Notes: generated by a model not told the origin, from the letters alone. 64,000 bases of DNA from an uncultured Gammaproteobacteria bacterium (GCA_964551605.1 CAZKCV010000006.1:70-64069); one strand, 5' to 3'; shown: positions 28,735-38,045, counted from the first letter of the stretch. Translations and numbers: made by a program.

Positions 28735-29793
28735 ATGTTTGAACCGCGATACAACATTACCACTCTGACCCTTTCCCGGATTGCTGAAATTGCCGAGATA
28801 AAAGCGGCCGTTGAAAGGTCCCGCGTTTTGCCCTTAAATGAAGCTCAACTGAGGCGCCAGGCAATTCTGCGGATGGCCCATACCTCCACGTCAATTGAGG
28901 GAAATAAATTAGCTGAATTTGAAGTGGGGAAAGTCCTGGAAGGAAAGTCTGTCCGGGCGACCCAAAAGGATATTGTAGAGGTGGAAAACTACTACCAGGC
29001 CCTAAAGCTGATTGAGAAAATGGCCAGGGAAAAAGGCAATATAACGGTGGCGGAAATATTAAAATTACACAAGGCGGTGGTTGAAGGACTGGTGGAAAAT
29101 GAGAAAGTCGGGAGTTTCAGACCGGCTGATGTTTATGTATTGGATGATTTGGGAGACGGCCGGGAAATGTTAAGGTTTAAGGCCCCCCCTGCTTCCGGGG
29201 TTGAAAAAATGATAGAGGATTTAATGGCCTGGCTTAGATCATCAAAAAAAACAGGTATCCACCCGATTATCCGGGCCGGTATTTTGCACCTGCAGTTTGT
29301 CACCATCCACCCTTTTACAGACGGCAACGGCCGGGTGGCCAGACTCTTGACCCAGCTTCAGCTTTACCGGGACGGCTGGGATTTTCGGAAAATTTTGGTG
29401 CTGGAGGACTATTATAACCAGGACCGGATGTCTTATTATAATGCGGAAAACCGGGCCCAGGGAAAAACTTACCAGGAGGACATGGATTTTACCAACTGGC
29501 TGGAATACTTTACCACCGGGTTTTTGGTGGAAGCCAGAAAGGTTTTGGAACAAATCCAGTCAATAGGGTTTGGTAAAGTCAGCAGGAAGAGCGAGCAGAT
29601 CTTTTTAGACCGGGATGAGATTCAGGTAATGGATTTTTTGACTACTACAGGCAGGATTACCTCAGATGATGTGGCAGATATCTTAAAAGTAGCCAAAAGG
29701 ACTGCCCAGCTTAAGCTTAAGAATTTATCGGATAAGGGTCTGCTTAAATTAAAAGGCAAAGGCCCCAGCTCTTATTATATCCTTGCGCGATAG
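28735..29793 (+). CDS. Fic family protein (class II, N-terminal inhibitory helix; C-terminal wHTH)
   Basis: 'HPFTDGNGRVAR' Fic motif and 'STSIEGN' inhibitory motif. Confidence 0.8.
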   Translation: MFEPRYNITTLTLSRIAEIAEIKAAVERSRVLPLNEAQLRRQAILRMAHTSTSIEGNKLAEFEVGKVLEGKSVRATQKDIVEVENYYQALKLIEKMAREKGNITVAEILKLHKAVVEGLVENEKVGSFRPADVYVLDDLGDGREMLRFKAPPASGVEKMIEDLMAWLRSSKKTGIHPIIRAGILHLQFVTIHPFTDGNGRVARLLTQLQLYRDGWDFRKILVLEDYYNQDRMSYYNAENRAQGKTYQEDMDFTNWLEYFTTGFLVEARKVLEQIQSIGFGKVSRKSEQIFLDRDEIQVMDFLTTTGRITSDDVADILKVAKRTAQLKLKNLSDKGLLKLKGKGPSSYYILAR

Positions 29794-32240: not shown

Positions 32241-33063
32241 GGATAAACCCAACCTTAAGTCAAGTACAACCGGGTTAAAAGCCTGGTTGTACTTTTTAGA
32301 GGATAACTATACAATTAACAATATGCGGACAATTGCCTCAGTAGCTGCTCCAATACTTATTTTCTTCATTTTATTGTTTGCTTATACAAAAATAGCAGGG
32401 CCGATACCCTTTTCTGTAACCAGTGTTACCACTACTAAATCCGATACTTTTAATGTGACAGGAGAAGGAATGGTAGCAGCTAAGCCGGATATAGCCACCC
32501 TGAGTGTAGGTATTTTAGCTCAGGCTTCTACAGTCAAGGCAGCCCAGGATCAGATAAACTCAAATATTAATAGAGTTTCAGAAGCCGTTAAAAAGCTGGG
32601 GGTGGAACAGAAGGATATCCAAACCCAAAATTACCAAATCAACCCCACTTATGATTTCCAGGGCTCCACCCAACGTATCTCCGGCTACTCTGCTTCCACA
32701 AACCTTTCCATAAAGGTCAGGAAAATCGACCAGATAAACCAGGTTATAGATGAGGCAACAGCTAATGGGGCAAACCAGGTGGGAAATATTAGCTTTGACG
32801 TGGATGAAAAAGCTAAACTTCAAAATGAAGCCAGAGAAAAAGCAGTGGCAGAGGCCAGGAAAAAGGCGGAAAGCGCGGCCAAAATTGCCGGATTCAGGCT
32901 AGGCAGAATGGTTAATTATTCAGAAAGCTTTGACGGCGGGCCCGGGCCAATACAGCTTAGGACTTTAGCGGTTCCCGGAGGCGGTGAAAAAGTAAATACT
33001 ACAATAGAGCCGGGATCCTCTGAAATTAAAGTTGTAGTCACCTTAAGCTACGAAATTTTGTAG
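32218..33063 (+). CDS. SIMPL/DUF541 domain protein
   Basis: 'AAKPDIATLSVGI...' and a C-terminal 'IKVVVTLSYEIL', typical of SIMPL periplasmic proteins. Confidence 0.65.
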   Translation: MRMRTKTRDKPNLKSSTTGLKAWLYFLEDNYTINNMRTIASVAAPILIFFILLFAYTKIAGPIPFSVTSVTTTKSDTFNVTGEGMVAAKPDIATLSVGILAQASTVKAAQDQINSNINRVSEAVKKLGVEQKDIQTQNYQINPTYDFQGSTQRISGYSASTNLSIKVRKIDQINQVIDEATANGANQVGNISFDVDEKAKLQNEAREKAVAEARKKAESAAKIAGFRLGRMVNYSESFDGGPGPIQLRTLAVPGGGEKVNTTIEPGSSEIKVVVTLSYEIL

Positions 33064-33144
33064 TCTTCTCCTTTCTTGAAATCAGTTATCCTTTTCGGAT
33101 AAAATAGACTAGCTTCGGGAAGTTTACTTCGAGCGAAGAGAGAA

Positions 33145-33218
33145 GCGGGTGTAATTCACCGGTAGAATGTCACTTTTCCAAAGTGAACGTAAGGGGTCCG
33201 ACTCCCCTCACCCGCTCC
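33145..33218 (+). tRNA. tRNA-Gly (anticodon TCC), CCA encoded
   Basis: Acceptor GCGGGTG/CACCCGC, anticodon loop TTTCCAA, T-arm AGGGG-TCCGACT-CCCCT, discriminator T plus CCA. Confidence 0.75.
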
Positions 33219-33250
33219 AGACGAATTTTATCGAACTGACAAATTTTAGC

Positions 33251-33279
33251 TTCAAAAAATTGCTGAATTTTGCTATAAT
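33251..33279 (+). promoter_or_regulatory. consensus-like sigma70 promoter (TTCAAA-17-TGcTATAAT)
   Basis: Read directly; it fires rightwards, antisense to the small ORF 33331..33495. Confidence 0.5.
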
Positions 33280-33330
33280 CTAGGCTTATAACGTATTACC
33301 TTAACAGGAATCGAACTAGCCTTAATTTTA

Positions 33331-33495
33331 TTATTTCTCATCTTGCTCAACTTCTTCAAAATCTCCCATCCACTTTGACCCATAGACATGTTGCATAACA
33401 GCACAAGCTAACAAATATACAACTTCCTGTATGTCTTTTAGCTCTTCTTCCGAAGCATTAGGGTAATATTTTTTAATTACTTCCAAAGGTAACAT
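33331..33495 (-). CDS. 54-aa acidic protein (paralog of 35201..35365); not in the supplied ORF track
   Basis: Translates to MLPLEVIKKYYPNASEEELKDIQEVVYLLACAVMQHVYGSKWMGDFEEVEQDEK. Strong SD (AAGGAGG) 8 nt upstream; about 75% identical to copy 2. Confidence 0.45.
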   Translation of the reverse strand: MLPLEVIKKYYPNASEEELKDIQEVVYLLACAVMQHVYGSKWMGDFEEVEQDEK

Positions 33496-33557
33496 AATAA
33501 ATTATCAGCTCCTCCTTTTTTGACTTTTAAGCCTACAGAGACTATAATTCAGCCAAG

Positions 33558-34391
33558 ATGAGTTTTCTTGAGAGATTGTTGCATGGTATACAGGCAAGAG
33601 AAGAAATAGAGCGGAAAGCACAGATCTCAACAGCCGAGAAAGCTGAACTTGAAGCTAAAGCGGTTATTGAGACAAAAGAAAGTGATGTAAGAGATGAAAA
33701 TGCCAGACAATCAGTAATAAAGCAGGAAATAAAAGACGCTCTAGAAAGATATTCTGTAAAAGAGAGACTAGAGGCAATACGTGATGGTGTTTGGAAAGTG
33801 GGAGAGGTTAAGCCAAACGATAGAACCAATGACGGTCTCTACTTAATACATACATACCCAGCAGCAGTTCCAATTATGGTGAGAGGTACATGGACTGTGC
33901 CAACTCACGAGTCGCCCGCCTCTGGTAGTGGAGGCCCTAAAGAATGGACTTATAGCGGGTGGACGCACAATGGTTTTTTCAAAGAAGGAAGAAGGTTTGA
34001 CGCTGTAGTTATTAGAGCTCGAGCTACAGCCCACAAATCACCAGGCTCATCAAAGTTTACTGCAACCTCATCAAATCTTGTTTTTGATGCTGGTGGTGGA
34101 TGGTATGGATTAGAGCCAAAAGATAATTTTGATTGGCATTATGTACCGATGGAATATAGAGGTAGTTTTACGGAAAATTATAGGCACTTTCATGGATACG
34201 GGGAAATTGGCATTAATTCTCCTTCATATTTAGAAATGGTGATAACTGATTACTGCCACGATATAATTACAAACAAAAGAATTTCAACAGCCTATTACAA
34301 AATAACTGAACATAGCAGACTACCTCTACAAGCGGAGGCTGAAGAACAAAATAATTTAATAGGATTAAGACAAGCTGGGAAAATAAGATAA
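33558..34391 (+). CDS. hypothetical protein (coiled-coil N-terminus plus Gly/Trp/Tyr-rich globular domain)
   Basis: 277-aa ORF; N-terminus paralogous to the next gene. Confidence 0.45.
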   Translation: MSFLERLLHGIQAREEIERKAQISTAEKAELEAKAVIETKESDVRDENARQSVIKQEIKDALERYSVKERLEAIRDGVWKVGEVKPNDRTNDGLYLIHTYPAAVPIMVRGTWTVPTHESPASGSGGPKEWTYSGWTHNGFFKEGRRFDAVVIRARATAHKSPGSSKFTATSSNLVFDAGGGWYGLEPKDNFDWHYVPMEYRGSFTENYRHFHGYGEIGINSPSYLEMVITDYCHDIITNKRISTAYYKITEHSRLPLQAEAEEQNNLIGLRQAGKIR

Positions 34392-34422
34392 TAGCAGCTT
34401 TGAACACATTAAATTAAACCAT

Positions 34423-34956
34423 ATGGGATTTATAGAAAAATTAAAACAAGAAAAAGAAGCAATAGAGCAAGGGAAGGCAATCCAGCAGGCTAAATTAACT
34501 GAGGCAGAAGCACTTCATCAACAAAGAAGAGAGCAGGCCGCTACCTTTCGCACGGAAAGTGGAATCGGGGATCTAGCATTAACAGCTGCTGATCTTCTCA
34601 AAAAAGTAAGGTTTCCAGATGCTTCATATAGTAACGGCCAAGCTATTCAAAATCAATCAATTACAGAAGTTGATAGCGTTTTTGATAGTATCAGATGGGG
34701 TAAATTATCAAGAACTAGTTATATGAGATCTCCTCGCAAGGGCAATTATTATGTTAGTATTGCAACAAGACCTAATGGACAAATCGTTTTTTATGCGCAG
34801 AAAGAAATTTTAATACCAGAAACCGACTGGCGAAAGGACAAGGATCTTCTGGAACGCACTTTAGAACAAGCTTTGAATTTGCCAGGCGAAGCGTATGAGC
34901 CCGAAAAGGAAATTAACTATGGACCTTATATACCGCCTCTAAAGCCGAATTTTTAG
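34423..34956 (+). CDS. hypothetical protein (N-terminus paralogous to 33558..34391)
   Basis: 'MGFIEKLKQEKEAIEQ' versus 'MSFLERLLHGIQAREEIE'. Confidence 0.45.
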   Translation: MGFIEKLKQEKEAIEQGKAIQQAKLTEAEALHQQRREQAATFRTESGIGDLALTAADLLKKVRFPDASYSNGQAIQNQSITEVDSVFDSIRWGKLSRTSYMRSPRKGNYYVSIATRPNGQIVFYAQKEILIPETDWRKDKDLLERTLEQALNLPGEAYEPEKEINYGPYIPPLKPNF

Positions 34957-34967
34957 TGAATGAATTT

Positions 34968-35093
34968 CTGATATGCATACTTATACAGTTTTTAGTTCTA
35001 AGGCGTAGACTAAATCTGGTAACAGACCGTCAGATAGGAATAATCTGATGAATTCTGGCAGTCTGGCTAAGATCACGTCAGGAGCTCCATACG
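34968..35093. repeat. noncoding segment X, duplicated at 36570-36707 (about 85% identity)
   Basis: Shared strings include GAATTTCTGATATGCATA..., GACCGTCAGATAGGAA and GAATTCTGGCAGTCTGGCTAAGA..GTCAGGAGCTCCATACG. Confidence 0.6.
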
Positions 35094-35215
35094 AATTTTA
35101 TTGAAATAACAAACTTTAGCTTCAAAAAATTGCTAAAATTTGTCGAAATTTAATCCTATAACATAGGACCACAACGGGAATCGAACTAGCCTTAAGCTTG
35201 TTATTTCTCTTCTAG
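35094..35215. repeat. noncoding segment Y, duplicate of 33219-33345 (follows tRNA-Gly in copy 1)
   Basis: ACGAATTTTAT..TTAGCTTCAAAAAATTGCT...GGAATCGAACTAGCCTTAA conserved in both copies. Confidence 0.6.
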
Positions 35216-35365
35216 GACGGGTTCATCAAAATCTCCCATCCATTTCGACCCATAAAATTCTTGCATAACAGCACATGCCAATAAATAAACAACCTCTTGG
35301 ATATCTTTTAGCTCTTCTTCTGAAACATCGGGATAGTATTTTCTTATTTCTTCCATAGGTAGCAT
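35201..35365 (-). CDS. 54-aa acidic protein (paralog of 33331..33495)
   Basis: The track ORF 35201..35401 is trimmed to the Met preceded by AAGGTGGTGA. Sequence MLPMEEIRKYYPDVSEEELKDIQEVVYLLACAVMQEFYGSKWMGDFDEPVLEEK. Confidence 0.45.
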   Translation of the reverse strand: MLPMEEIRKYYPDVSEEELKDIQEVVYLLACAVMQEFYGSKWMGDFDEPVLEEK

Positions 35366-35463
35366 CAACAAATCACCACCTTTTCTCCAATTACTAATCA
35401 CTTATTTTCTTCAACTATAGCTAATTATCGAAAGCTTCTAAAATTTGCTATACTGGATTCAGT

Positions 35464-36381
35464 ATGGAAAACAGTCCGGAAATGCCAGTTCAATCTTCTA
35501 CTATGCAAGGTCAGGCTGATATATCTACTCTGTTACCACCACAACAACAGCAAACACAACCGCTTTATTTCAAACACAGTGGCTTTATCGTAAGACTTTT
35601 TGCCCTTATTGTTGATGTAGTTATTATTTTATTAATTACACTTCTGTTAAACCTTATTCTTCAGTTAGCCACTGGACAGTCATTAAATTACAGTAAAGGT
35701 TCCCTATTTCAATTTCTGGTAACACTTATTTCCCTCATATATTCAATCACTTTTGTTGCGCTATATGGTGCTACTCCAGGCAAAATGCTCCTTCGTCTTA
35801 GGATTGTAAATACAAATTATCAGAAAGTTAGCTTCTTTCAAGTATTGAAGCGTGAAACAGGAGGCAAGATACTTTCAGGATTAGTTTTTAATCTCGGTTA
35901 TTTATGGGCTGCCATTGATAACAAAAAACAGGCTTGGCATGATAAAATTGCTAAAACCTACGTTATCCATATAGAACCCATTAGCTATCAGGAATATTTA
36001 AAGCAACAGGAAAAAGGCAAAATAGGTTCACTTCCTTATGTTTTAATCTTCGCAGGAGCAGCAGAAGTAATCTTTATATCATTCTTTGCATTTTCAGTTG
36101 TGAGACAGCTAACAACACTTTACGAAACCATGGAAACAGGTGGGTATAATCCTTTAATTACATACTTAATGTTAGGAATAATAGGATTGAGTTGTTTTGC
36201 TCAAATTATATGGGGCAGTATATTATGGTCTAAGAAAAAGGCACCAGAAACCATAAGTCAGAGTTCTATCAAAACTGCTAAAGTTCTACTAATACTCGGA
36301 GCAACTTTATTTTTCTTACTAATTCCATTCCTTGTTTTGTCTGTTATTCTTCCAATTTACAAATTAACAACTTCGTTTTAA
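35464..36381 (+). CDS. RDD-family membrane protein with C-terminal extra TM domain
   Basis: 'WHDKIAKTYVI' RDD-domain C-terminal motif; TM helices on both sides. Confidence 0.5.
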   Translation: MENSPEMPVQSSTMQGQADISTLLPPQQQQTQPLYFKHSGFIVRLFALIVDVVIILLITLLLNLILQLATGQSLNYSKGSLFQFLVTLISLIYSITFVALYGATPGKMLLRLRIVNTNYQKVSFFQVLKRETGGKILSGLVFNLGYLWAAIDNKKQAWHDKIAKTYVIHIEPISYQEYLKQQEKGKIGSLPYVLIFAGAAEVIFISFFAFSVVRQLTTLYETMETGGYNPLITYLMLGIIGLSCFAQIIWGSILWSKKKAPETISQSSIKTAKVLLILGATLFFLLIPFLVLSVILPIYKLTTSF

Positions 36382-36569
36382 CTAACTTAAGAATACACAA
36401 GATTTTTAGCATCACCAGATATTCAAAAACTGAAAATGTGTCGTACAAGTTTGAGTATATTAATGTATAATTATTTTTACCGAATGATCCTTGTGGTGAA
36501 AGTACCTTACTATTAGGGAGCTAATGTTGACATCATAATCGATGATTCATCTTGGCCACGAGGATCGAA

Positions 36570-36707
36570 TTTCTGATATGCATATTTATGCATTTTTTAG
36601 ACCTAAGGCATAGACGAAGTCAGGTAGTAGACCGTCAGATAGGAACATTTTGAAGAATTCTGGCAGTCTGGCTAAGACCTCGTCAGGAGCTCCATACGGA
36701 ATACCCT
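36570..36707. repeat. noncoding segment X, copy 2
   Basis: See 34968-35093. Confidence 0.6.
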
Positions 36708-36840
36708 GTGTATCAAGTCCCGAATATATTGATACAACGGGCTAATCGTCAATGTTTCATAAATCAAGTTGTTTTCTGATTTAAGTATTTTTTAATTTTT
36801 AGCCTCATTTTGGTTCGAATCCCGTCTCTTTACCAAAGAC

Positions 36841-36893
36841 TTGTCAATTATATTGACAAATAACTTGACAATTAAAATTGTCCTTTATATAAT
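36841..36893 (+). promoter_or_regulatory. 19-bp perfect palindrome (TTGTCAATTATATTGACAA) plus consensus sigma70 promoter TTGACA-17-TATAAT upstream of Fic gene 2
   Basis: Palindrome 36841-36859, -35 at 36865-36870, -10 at 36888-36893, GGAG then ATG at 36900. Confidence 0.55.
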
Positions 36894-36899
36894 TGGAGT

Positions 36900-37910
36900 A
36901 TGTTTAAACCAAAATATACTTTAACTCCCGAAATCCTCAATAATATTAATGAGATAGAAAGGCTTTATGGACGACTTGAGGGTTTGACTATTCCCCGACA
37001 TCTTTTATTAAATCTTGAACGGGACAATTTAATTCAATCTGCATATATTTCAAATAGCATTGAGGGTAATCCTCTCTCTCAAGCAGAAGTAACAAATCTA
37101 TTGTTAAATGATAGGATACCGGTTAATCGGGATGAAAAAGAAGTGGTCAATTACTTTAAAATTTTAAAAACTCTTCATAAAAGAATTGGACAACCCTTTG
37201 ACCTTAATATTATTCTTGATATTCATACGGAATTAATGGAAGCGGTTAGTGATAAAATCAAAGGTAAAATTCGAAATAAGCAAATAGTAATAGGCAATTA
37301 TGGTGAAGACAATAAAATTATTATTAAACATAATCCTCCGTTTCACACATATTTAGAAATAGAGCAGTCTCTAAAAAAACTTCTGAATTGGATTCAAGAT
37401 AGCGCTGAACCATCTATTTTAAAAGCGGGATTGTTTCATCATCAATTTGTTTTTATTCATCCGTTTGAGGATGGCAATGGAAGAGTGTGCAGGTTATCAA
37501 CGGCGCTATTTTTATTAAAAAATAACTATCTTATTAATAAGTACTTTGTTCTGGATGATTATTATGATATTGATAGACAGCAATATTCGGATAAATTACA
37601 TACTGCTGATTTTGGGGACAAGACAGAATGGTTAAAGTATTTTACAGATGGAGTGAAATATTCATTACAAAGCGCATTAGGAAAGGTTGAATCAGGACTC
37701 ACCAATCTTACGTTTGATATTCGTCCAACTCCTAAGGAACAGGTAGCTTTAGCAATAATACAAAAGTATAGAGAAATTAATTCCGCTGATTTAGTAAAAG
37801 AGCTCAATATAACAAGACAACAGGCGTTCAATCTTCTAAGAGCTCTTACAAAAAAGGGTTATCTTGAAAAAAAGGGCATCACTAAAAGTAGTTTTTATAT
37901 CTTAAAATAG
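36900..37910 (+). CDS. Fic family protein (class II; C-terminal wHTH)
   Basis: 'HPFEDGNGRVCR' and 'SNSIEGN'. Confidence 0.8.
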   Translation: MFKPKYTLTPEILNNINEIERLYGRLEGLTIPRHLLLNLERDNLIQSAYISNSIEGNPLSQAEVTNLLLNDRIPVNRDEKEVVNYFKILKTLHKRIGQPFDLNIILDIHTELMEAVSDKIKGKIRNKQIVIGNYGEDNKIIIKHNPPFHTYLEIEQSLKKLLNWIQDSAEPSILKAGLFHHQFVFIHPFEDGNGRVCRLSTALFLLKNNYLINKYFVLDDYYDIDRQQYSDKLHTADFGDKTEWLKYFTDGVKYSLQSALGKVESGLTNLTFDIRPTPKEQVALAIIQKYREINSADLVKELNITRQQAFNLLRALTKKGYLEKKGITKSSFYILK

Positions 37911-38045
37911 CACATTCTACTGTTTATAGTATACATCCTAGTTAAAAATTGTTATTGCGCTTTATAGAGATCGCCGTTTGCCATTTCCAAAGGATAGCAT
38001 ATTTTGCCTGTACAATTAAAATGAATTGATGTTACAATACTTTCT

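Follow-up and report, generated by a model that had tools for sequence, protein, structure and literature searches.

Staphylococcal cassette chromosome (SCC) elements are inserted by the large serine recombinases CcrAB or CcrC at the 3′ end of one conserved gene (rlmH/orfX); they accrete head-to-tail, share a short repeated core, carry varied cargo, and many of them lack a recombinase and are moved in trans. Classical tRNA islands and cis-mobilizable elements are integrated at tRNA 3′ ends by tyrosine integrases. Their distal border repeats the tRNA end, they build up in tandem, and they give rise to integrase-less derivatives bounded by attachment (att) sites, whose identity blocks usually begin at the T-loop or anticodon loop and reach the 3′ end. 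Flexible islands in a streamlined genome are also built by tycheposons. The tycheposons of Prochlorococcus are tRNA-targeting elements with site-specific integrases and cargo modules, and their tandem-repeat junctions were detected by PCR in cultures (bioRxiv 10.1101/2020.12.28.424599). Here, a stretch of 64,000 nt deposited under the name of an uncultured Gammaproteobacteria bacterium (GCA_964551605.1, CAZKCV010000006.1:70-64069; hereafter the window) was analyzed, and the region from 33220 to ~37950, directly downstream of a tRNA-Gly gene, was judged on balance to be an island formed by repeated site-specific insertion at the tRNA-Gly 3′ end, its units being non-autonomous cassettes moved in trans in the manner of SCC elements.

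The repeats in the window are far beyond chance. Two pairs were returned by a repeat finder, D1 (33203-33495 vs 35073-35365; 293 nt, 79% identity) and D2 (34962-35093 vs 36567-36698; 132 nt, 87% identity). D1 corresponds to a segment Y followed by a minus-strand gene for a 54-aa protein, and D2 to a segment X, both of which had been reported as occurring twice in an initial annotation made from the sequence; both duplications were recovered. The end assigned there to the second X, 36707, was corrected to 36698, positions 36699-36748 being a different conserved segment (Z), and the length given for X, about 130 bp, proved too short, the full X being longer and its copy 2 reaching upstream to ~36466. 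The resemblance of the X end to the 3′ junction of tRNA-Gly, also pointed out in that annotation, holds at all three joints, where GCTCCA followed by (G/T)ACG was read from the sequence at 33214-33223, 35084-35093 and 36689-36698. Joint 1, between the tRNA and the first Y (33214 onward), reads ...CCCGCTCCA-GACG-AATTTTATCG; joint 2, between the first X and the second Y (35084 onward), reads ...GGAGCTCCA-TACG-AATTTTATTG; and joint 3, between the second X and Z (36689 onward), reads ...GGAGCTCCA-TACG-GAATACCC. GCTC(CA) is the common core at every junction and lies inside partly dyad-symmetric att-like sites, the internal joint forming an imperfect palindrome CGTCAGGAG|CTCCATACG in which 7 of 9 positions are symmetric. 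The guanine plus cytosine (GC) content was 0.31-0.37 across ~33200-37950 vs 0.42-0.48 in both flanks.

Related loci were collected by context look-ups, a scan of genome collections (40 loci) and a metagenome scan (63 loci, L049-L111, from groundwater metagenomes), giving 103 non-redundant loci, and X, Y, the small gene and tRNA genes were mapped on all of them by profile searches. The same order recurred throughout this set: tRNA, Y, small gene on the opposite strand, variable genes and X, often repeated two to three times running. Y was found in 75 copies, of which 36 abut a tRNA 3′ end and 22 abut X; 55 of the 75 are followed by the small gene, and 11 loci contain two or three copies. The 36 tRNA-Y joints are at Gly(tcc) (14), Gly(ccc) (12), Gly(gcc) (5), Lys (4) and Arg (1) genes. 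Between Y and X, the genes are almost all unrelated from unit to unit, and include those for Bro-N proteins, aminotransferases, an ArsR/MerC/MerA set, methionyl-tRNA synthetase, adenylosuccinate lyase, an rRNA dimethylase, glycosyltransferases, an ABC transporter, an AAA ATPase, and NYN and RDD proteins. The hosts, over ~100 loci, are Davies-, Levy-, Gottesman-, Curtiss-, Collier- and Blackburnbacteria. In the complete Microgenomates genome CP066688, two tRNA-Gly sites are occupied. Since the same X, Y and small gene enclose unrelated contents in many genomes, the window is read as containing two bounded cargo-carrying units and not a local duplication. The earlier suggestion of a cassette array at a tRNA-associated recombination hotspot is accordingly retained, the same bounded units with unrelated cargo being stacked at tRNA-Gly ends in many Microgenomates.

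The window contains two complete non-autonomous cassettes, E1 (33220-35093) and E2 (35094-36698), followed by Z and a Fic unit. The general layout is core, Y arm, 54-aa gene (reverse), cargo, often a small RNA (sRNA) gene here called R95, X3′ arm (the downstream part of X) and core. The putative integration target is the tRNA-Gly(tcc) gene (33145-33219, plus strand; ARAGORN and Rfam), which is joined to E1 at the attL-like junction GCTCCA-GACG (33214-33223, plus strand), a joint read from the sequence and found in the same form in the 36 tRNA-Y joints. In E1, Y copy 1 (33220-33330, plus strand), the 110-nt left arm delimited by the repeat and a family alignment, is followed by the small gene sp1 (33331-33495, minus strand), by cargo on the plus strand (33520-34956), and by X copy 1 (34958-35093, plus strand), which consists of the X3′ arm only, is truncated at its 5′ end without an R95 gene, and ends in CGTCAGGAGCTCCA-TACG at the attP-like junction 2 (35084-35093). 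The E1 cargo, delimited by open reading frames (ORFs) and a promoter scan, comprises a promoter TTGACT-17-TATAAT (33520-33548), a 277-aa gene (33558-34391) and a 177-aa gene (34423-34956). In E2, Y copy 2 (35094-35200, plus strand) forms the left arm, the small gene sp2 (35201-35365, minus strand) encodes 54 aa from an ATG at 35365 (in a mechanical ORF listing it extends to a GTG at 35401), and the cargo is a 305-aa membrane protein of the RDD family (35464-36381, plus strand; Pfam PF06271, E=7e-26). It is followed by the R95 gene (36466-36570, plus strand), with a -10 box TATAAT at 36466-36471 and an RNA from ~36479 to 36570, and by the X3′ arm of X copy 2 (36563-36698, plus strand), which contains a hairpin plus T-run at ~36573-36598 and ends in CGTCAGGAGCTCCA-TACG at junction 3 (36689-36698).

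The ends of the tRNA genes are informative about the joining event. In relatives, tRNA-Gly genes without a directly abutting element end in ...CCCGCTC and then pass into unique DNA, with no encoded CCA. Every occupied tRNA-Gly reads ...CCCGCTC-CA-TA(C/G)G-Y, and CCA is encoded in every tRNA-Gly gene directly occupied by a cassette or by one of the recombinase-bearing master elements described below. The last X of an array often ends in ...GGAGCTC and is followed at once by a unique A-rich flank, and in front of some Y copies a 10-20-nt piece of the tRNA-Gly 3′ end takes the place of X. Recombination between an attP-like site X...GAGCTC|CATACG...Y and an attB site tRNA...CCGCTC|flank, with the crossover within GCTC, would give exactly the observed joints, and the encoded CCA would then be donated by the element; the CCA of the window tRNA-Gly (33217-33219) was probably donated in this way by the inserted cassette. 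Such supply by an element of the CCA of its occupied tRNA gene would be an unusual feature. A sister subfamily at tRNA-Lys has a clearly homologous X arm, which terminates in the same way as the tRNA-Lys gene itself (GCCGGGTCAC, GCGGGATCAC and similar), and a different Y start. The terminus of X thus imitates that of the tRNA it targets (GCTCCA for Gly; GCCGGGTCAC and similar for Lys), and from the ends of X and Y in the tRNA-Lys subfamily it appears that the arms are constant and the core is matched to the target. The junctions look like products of site-specific recombination at the extreme tRNA 3′ end.

A mechanism can be proposed on this basis. The X3′ and Y arms of a free circular cassette would meet at CGTCAGGAG|CTCCATACG, forming an attP-like site, and the attB site would be the last bases of the tRNA gene (...GCTC). 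Insertion would restore the tRNA end while adding an encoded CCA, and new cassettes would dock at an existing core, so that a head-to-tail array would be built up. The recombinase would be supplied in trans by a master element. We infer by analogy that the cassettes of the window were mobilized by a recombinase of this family whose gene lies at another place in the genome or which was active formerly.

The arms were compared in sequence and in predicted fold. The 36-copy alignment of Y (110 nt) contains no gaps other than one 3-nt deletion in L046 and a short 5′ start in Y copy 2. No consensus fold was obtained with RNAalifold for Y (36 copies), no conserved fold for X3′ (50 copies, both strands) and essentially no consensus structure for X (17 copies), and the z-scores from single-sequence folding of X on both strands (-0.8 to -2.2) were uninformative. 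The sequences of X3′ and Y are conserved at 75-90%, X3′ (the remaining 130 nt of X after R95) falls into three sequence subtypes, and T-loop-like (A/T)TCGAA(T/C) boxes occur in X3′, Y, Z and the edges of R95. Because of the lack of a conserved fold and the near absence of indels in Y, we infer that X3′ and Y are protein-binding DNA. Y copy 1 contains two ATCGAACT boxes and a promoter-like site on the plus strand, TTCAAA-17-TATAAT preceded by TG (33251-33279), a match of the extended -10 type in the promoter scan that agrees with the promoter reported there by the initial annotation as pointing antisense through the small gene.

Candidate enzymes were sought by clustering ORFs of >=90 aa from all loci. 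A 500-565-aa protein whose N-terminus reads IYVRVSTDEQ was found in 15 loci, L033, L063 and L073 among them, and was identified by Pfam as a large serine recombinase with Resolvase, Recombinase and Zn_ribbon_recom domains. In 14 of these 15 loci (all but L028), it belongs to a fixed module, the master element. As seen on longer contigs, the tRNA gene of this module is convergently overlapped by the recombinase ORF and R95 diverges from the ORF start; then come genes for DUF3800, an ImmA/IrrE-type peptidase, an XRE regulator and an M23/LysM peptidase, the last preceded by a truncated small-protein homologue (assignments confirmed by Pfam). One master is 99.8% identical over 9.5 kb at tRNA-Gly(ccc) and tRNA-Gly(gcc) in two assemblies, recombinases at two genes ending in GCTCCA, tRNA-Arg(gcg) and tRNA-Gly(tcc), are 97% identical, and a recombinase clade with 63% identity occupies tRNA-Lys and tRNA-Glu genes ending in TCACCA. 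Judged from their sequences, masters are mobile between tRNA genes. On the tRNA side, the masters read GCTCCA-TA(C/G)G-G(A/G)GGTAAACC..., the inner 10 nt being common with the cassette joints, and the sequence after this core resembles Z, which follows GCTCCA-nAnG in the window, L008, L021, L040 and L088. By its resemblance to the master loci, the window Z (36699-36748, plus strand) is the stump of the tRNA-proximal end of a recombinase-bearing master, representing the 3′ end of the recombinase gene in antisense. Masters and cassettes share R95, the small protein, the target and the inner core; the right end of the master element was not found within the loci examined.

A side observation on the masters concerns L033:6392-15911 and L034:6391-15911 (tRNA-forward), which contain the same master and downstream DNA and differ in their upstream neighbours, tRNA-Asp vs tRNA-Phe.

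That the region fits no standard element, as had been stated initially, is correct for the window copies, which encode no large serine recombinase, the defining feature of elements of that kind; it does not extend to their relatives, which encode one at the same sites, and the whole is therefore classed as a site-specific integrative element that has non-autonomous derivatives. Likeness to SCC is seen in the one-site arrays, the short cores, the recombinase-less units and the relatives with a large serine recombinase. Unlike in SCC, the target is a tRNA 3′ end and not a protein-coding gene, the host belongs to a candidate phyla radiation (CPR) lineage, the cassettes span 1.2-8 kb, and each has a 54-aa gene between long conserved arms without coding sequence (130 nt for X3′ and 110 nt for Y), many of them with a structured sRNA as well; the recombinase of the relatives is a candidate for acting on these sites. 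With classical tRNA islands, the locus shares insertion at a tRNA gene, a rebuilt tRNA end, a tRNA 3′-end copy at the distal border and a deviant GC content, whereas its core is 4-14 nt at the extreme 3′ end and its candidate enzyme is a serine recombinase. Tycheposons differ in having mostly tyrosine recombinases, in many cases with replication genes, and in belonging to another host phylum, and X/Y arms, the 54-aa gene and R95 are not reported for them.

Integrons are alike in having head-to-tail small units with unrelated genes, a recurring site and no recombinase inside the cassettes. However, no intI-like tyrosine recombinase was detected beside the array in probe searches, and the array is built on the end of a tRNA gene; its sites show conservation of sequence and not of fold, the opposite of attC, and have no R′/R″ or RYYYAAC/GTTRRRY boxes; and each cassette has its own small conserved gene and cargo often with its own promoter. 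An integron cassette array, with IntI plus attI and attC sites as its two membership features, was rejected on both, and the attC interpretation raised initially was dropped on the same grounds. The search for tyrosine recombinases used XerC and XerD probes (tblastn, E<1e-3) and gave no match in the window or across the related loci (1.05 Mb); since a gamma-delta resolvase probe matched nothing and missed the serine recombinases later found, such negative probes are weak evidence.

Several observations weigh against insertion by a recombinase acting in trans. With all 15 family members as tblastn queries, no recombinase was found in the 64-kb window, and none lies within ~10 kb of most cassette arrays. 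The master loci contain neither X nor Y, no locus was found to combine a master and Y/X cassettes in one array, and the half-site of the masters differs from Y beyond the inner ~10 nt. At 130 + 110 nt, the arms far exceed the ~50 bp of a typical serine-recombinase attP. The centre of the palindrome is a GC dinucleotide; a crossover there would leave orientation undetermined, whereas every array is head-to-tail. A terminal-overlap check of contigs gave no circular or excised forms among the loci, and an empty/occupied pair of otherwise identical genomes was not found. A more ambitious version of the trans-acting recombinase model, held tentatively and with distinctly less confidence, is a Microgenomates gene-capture system in which arm-bearing cassettes would dock serially at tRNA ends and donate CCA, the master recombinase would act in trans, the 54-aa protein would be a directionality or accessory factor, and R95, tied to DUF3800, would control the recombinase.

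Among the alternatives, the one that survives best, although it is improbable, is that the cassettes are spread by homologous recombination, with the tRNA, X and Y serving as portable homology arms and breaks made by GIY-YIG nucleases possibly stimulating the exchange. X (87%) and Y (~80%) are long and conserved enough for this, small GIY-YIG genes occur at the same tRNA ends, and the rarity of a recombinase in or near the arrays would be accounted for. The joints, however, are precise to the base at several tRNAs (Gly x3, Lys x2, Arg) that share only GCTCCA or TCACCA with the X end, too little homology on the tRNA side for such exchange, and neither the gain of CCA by a natively CCA-less tRNA gene nor the palindromic core is expected from it. 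No GIY-YIG gene is present in the window, and the stand-alone 80-aa GIY-YIG domains have no obvious DNA-targeting domain.

Stand-alone GIY-YIG genes (80-94 aa) were located between a CCA-less tRNA-Gly ...GCTC end and core-Y in L008, L011, L038, L039, L042 and L043; in L028 such a gene adjoins a truncated Y. Many other tRNAs of these loci are flanked by similar genes, and in several loci the tRNA-Gly-associated genes are bounded by a short GCTC-containing repeat. Their coordinates are L011:10276-10597, L038:370-691, L039:252-1086, L028:8440-8685, L043:4010-4352 and L008:10303-10542.

The 54-aa protein was examined through its homologues. The sp1 and sp2 proteins are 78% identical and contain the common core SEEELKDIQEVVYLLACAVMQ, which had been described as invariant and is so in both. 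There are 197 homologues, 76-94% identical among the 120 listed, and those with taxon-informative names, among the matches listed, are all from Microgenomates/Patescibacteria. In 34 distinct full-length copies, the diversity by codon position is 0.18/0.10/0.40 and synonymous exceed non-synonymous single-base differences by 1.7 to 1. The small gene is real, coding and under purifying selection; lack of conservation, which would have spoken against the initial description, was not observed. In an AlphaFold2 model (predicted local distance difference test score, 84), the acidic protein is helical, with helices at residues 4-8 and 16-41, a YYP loop and a disordered acidic tail. It has no match in Pfam or PHROGs, and the best PDB sequence (E=0.16) and the best Foldseek PDB fold (E=8) are not significant relatives. 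Directionality factors of serine integrases are small proteins, some of which bind the enzyme instead of DNA, and an accessory or directionality role for the 54-aa protein, acidic and helical as it is, may be speculated. The homologue in masters, 41-44 aa without the acidic tail, overlaps the start of the same-strand M23-peptidase/LysM gene (L063:2541-3288 and equivalents in other masters), an arrangement that suggests translational coupling with this cell-wall hydrolase.

The protein also bears on a second alternative, namely that the small protein and the antisense transcription from Y form a duplicated addiction module of the toxin-antitoxin or immunity type, a possibility that we consider quite unlikely. 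The strong conservation of a small acidic protein, the promoter-like site in Y directed antisense into its gene and the Fic/Doc-like genes of some cassettes could all be taken in its favour. The small gene has no constant partner, however, its neighbours differing in nearly every cassette, the protein has no relative among the Pfam and PHROGs families, PDB sequences or PDB folds, and X, the tRNA junctions and the arrays would be left unexplained, so that addiction could be no more than an extra role for this gene. The antisense-regulated toxin/immunity set proposed initially was given up for the same reasons. A putative RelE/Gp49-like gene of L054, so labelled from a reading of one ORF start, would also be in its favour.

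In a longer alignment, complete X copies, including window X copy 2, begin ~100 nt further upstream than the repeat and start with a conserved TGnTATAAT box 7-9 nt before ACCGAAUGAUCC..., the first 95 nt constituting R95. A pattern made from this upstream part recovered 63 more metagenome loci, and the promoter and RNA are conserved in 11 genome copies and in these 63 loci. R95 folds as a three-way junction with an 11-bp closing stem (P1; in the window, 36486-36496 pairs with 36556-36566), a short hairpin and a hairpin with a conserved AU bulge, and its joining strands UGAAAGUA and AGCGAAUGU are near-invariant. Over 35 distinct sequences, 93% of cells are paired vs 31-55% in controls slid by 1-3 columns; compensatory double changes occur in 7 of the 9 pairs of the third helix (P3), and many U-A to U-G changes are compatible only with the plus strand, i.e., the tRNA strand. 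Some copies carry GC-rich hairpin insertions at fixed points, which are compatible with an RNA, and a U-rich tract follows R95, joined in X by a small hairpin plus T-run. These features show R95 to be a structured RNA of the plus strand.

Rfam 15 returned only tRNAs at the gathering threshold over the whole window and nothing credible at E<=10 for 33000-37000 and 36430-36780, so that X and Y, whose membership of a known RNA family would have counted against the initial description, have no Rfam relative. A hammerhead ribozyme was rejected in a hand comparison, three permutations of the core order (CUGANGA / GAAA / UH) giving no fit, and 5S rRNA was rejected because a partial likeness to loop C is accompanied by no 5S match in Rfam. 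Eleven RNA motifs associated with DUF3800 genes (DUF3800-I to XI), mutually unrelated in structure, several followed by terminators and of unknown function, have been described (Weinberg et al. 2017, PMC5737381). R95 is like them in adjoining a DUF3800 gene in the master loci, ~10 nt apart, and in the U-rich tract that follows, but it is not among the curated motifs or matched in Rfam 15 at E<=10, and in the window and most cassettes it has no DUF3800 gene nearby; it adds a case to the unsolved association of DUF3800 with RNA. In masters, R95 and the serine recombinase gene are divergent, with ~35 nt between the R95 start and the recombinase start codon (L063:5189-5316 and the corresponding stretch of 14 other loci). 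With so short a gap, the two promoters would overlap or the recombinase leader would be antisense to R95, and a regulation of the recombinase gene by R95 can be speculated.

A third alternative assigns R95 a guiding role: a transcript running from R95 through X3′ to the tRNA-like end GGAGC-U-CCA would direct a recombinase in trans, in the manner of the IS110 bridge RNA. This was given little credence. R95 has its own promoter and a well-supported fold, the 3′ end of X follows the target tRNA (Gly vs Lys) while the arms are unchanged, and a near-invariant GGAGCG in R95 (GGGAGC invariant, plus G in >90% of copies) is complementary to the tRNA-Gly end CGCUCC. The motif, however, is identical in the tRNA-Lys-targeted L049 and so does not track the target, a comparison limited by the search pattern having fixed part of the motif. 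Moreover, R95 is followed by the U-rich tract and the hairpin plus T-run and, in many relatives, by 0.6-2 kb of cargo before X3′; X3′ has no conserved fold; no IS110-type gene was present among the recurrent ORF clusters; and the target-matching end of X is adequately explained as an attP core.

Finally, local tandem duplication followed by divergence without mobility, with X and Y as duplicated intergenic DNA, would suit two direct-orientation copies 1.6-1.9 kb apart but is hardly credible and was rejected, the genes between the repeats being unrelated, X, Y and the small gene recurring in dozens of genomes at different tRNAs with different cargo, and the island GC content being deviant. No rival explains the base-precise joints at several tRNAs as well as cassette insertion by a trans-acting recombinase.

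CPR bacteria have tiny genomes and few recognised mobile elements, and their gene exchange is poorly known. Judging from the loci compared here, what is new is a Microgenomates cassette system that is specific to tRNA 3′ ends and linked to a serine recombinase, its new components being the arms, the 54-aa protein and R95; a search of the literature on CPR, tRNA-Gly, integrative elements and serine recombinases found no description of the family. It would be a concrete and widespread vehicle of gene exchange for cargo including mercury resistance, tRNA synthetases, glycosyltransferases, transporters and Fic, and, if the capture system were true, it would be a main route of gene flow in reduced Microgenomates genomes, similar to integrons and SCC in function with a different build. 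The recombinase clade, with its simple predictable targets (GCTCCA or TCACCA), could offer genome-integration tools, and X, Y, R95 and the small gene can serve as reliable markers of island boundaries in Microgenomates assemblies and explain the assembly breaks there. Viral contigs scanned with three patterns (R95, the X3′ end and the Y end) gave zero matches, and there is thus no sign that the cassettes ride on catalogued phages.

As for the cargo of the window, the 277-aa and 177-aa proteins have no match in Pfam or PHROGs, and the 277-aa protein has only 9 homologues; the paralogy of their N-termini, claimed initially, is marginal in a two-sequence comparison (13 of 33 identities, E=0.029). 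The RDD and Fic assignments made at the same time were both borne out by Pfam, and an RDD gene in the cargo of L026 is 45% identical to that of the window. Elsewhere, the commonest cargo is a ~278-aa Bro-N-domain protein found in L001, L014, L020, L021 (two copies) and L026, 83-92% identical between genomes and paired in 4 of 6 copies with a shorter, type B subtype of X3′ (CTTGGATGAATCC...).

Two Logan contigs with window cassette 1 (L047 and L048; 1.0-1.6 kb) end inside or just short of the flanking repeats, and such repeats evidently fragment Microgenomates assemblies. Many module-bearing contigs (L007-L011, L014, L015, L020, L024 and others) are titled as uncultured Gammaproteobacteria and one as Rikenellaceae; as the module is specific to Microgenomates, these contigs are probably mislabelled or mis-binned.

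Upstream of the window tRNA-Gly, genes for a SIMPL protein and a sigma factor are present. At the distal side of the island, the T-loop-like fragment noticed near 36811 in the initial annotation was located as GGTTCGAATCCCGTCTCTTTACCA at 36812-36835 (plus strand), an orphan tRNA 3′-end fragment, read from the sequence, that extends from the T-loop to CCA. It resembles the 3′ ends of tRNA-Gly in relatives, is retained along with Fic in L021, and probably represents a former att junction where the Fic unit begins. This unit (36837-37910, plus strand; Pfam and promoter scan) consists of a palindromic operator with a promoter TTGACA-17-TATAAT (36865-36893) and a gene for a Fic protein with a winged helix-turn-helix (36900-37910). 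Nested inverted repeats (TTGTCAATTATATTGACAA ... TTGACAATTAAAATTGTC) at 36837-36893 overlap this perfect promoter, and since Pfam places a winged-helix domain at the C-terminus of the Fic protein, autoregulation is plausible. Window positions 36656-37909 are 89.5% identical to L021:2066-3320, a Daviesbacteria locus, vs ~72% for the core flanks, which points to a recent transfer of the block; the Fic proteins of the two loci are 94% identical. A second Fic-family gene in the upstream core region (28735-29784, plus strand), 31% identical to the island Fic, has syntenic counterparts in L011, L020, L021 and L037, from which the island Fic would be an extra, horizontally acquired paralogue.

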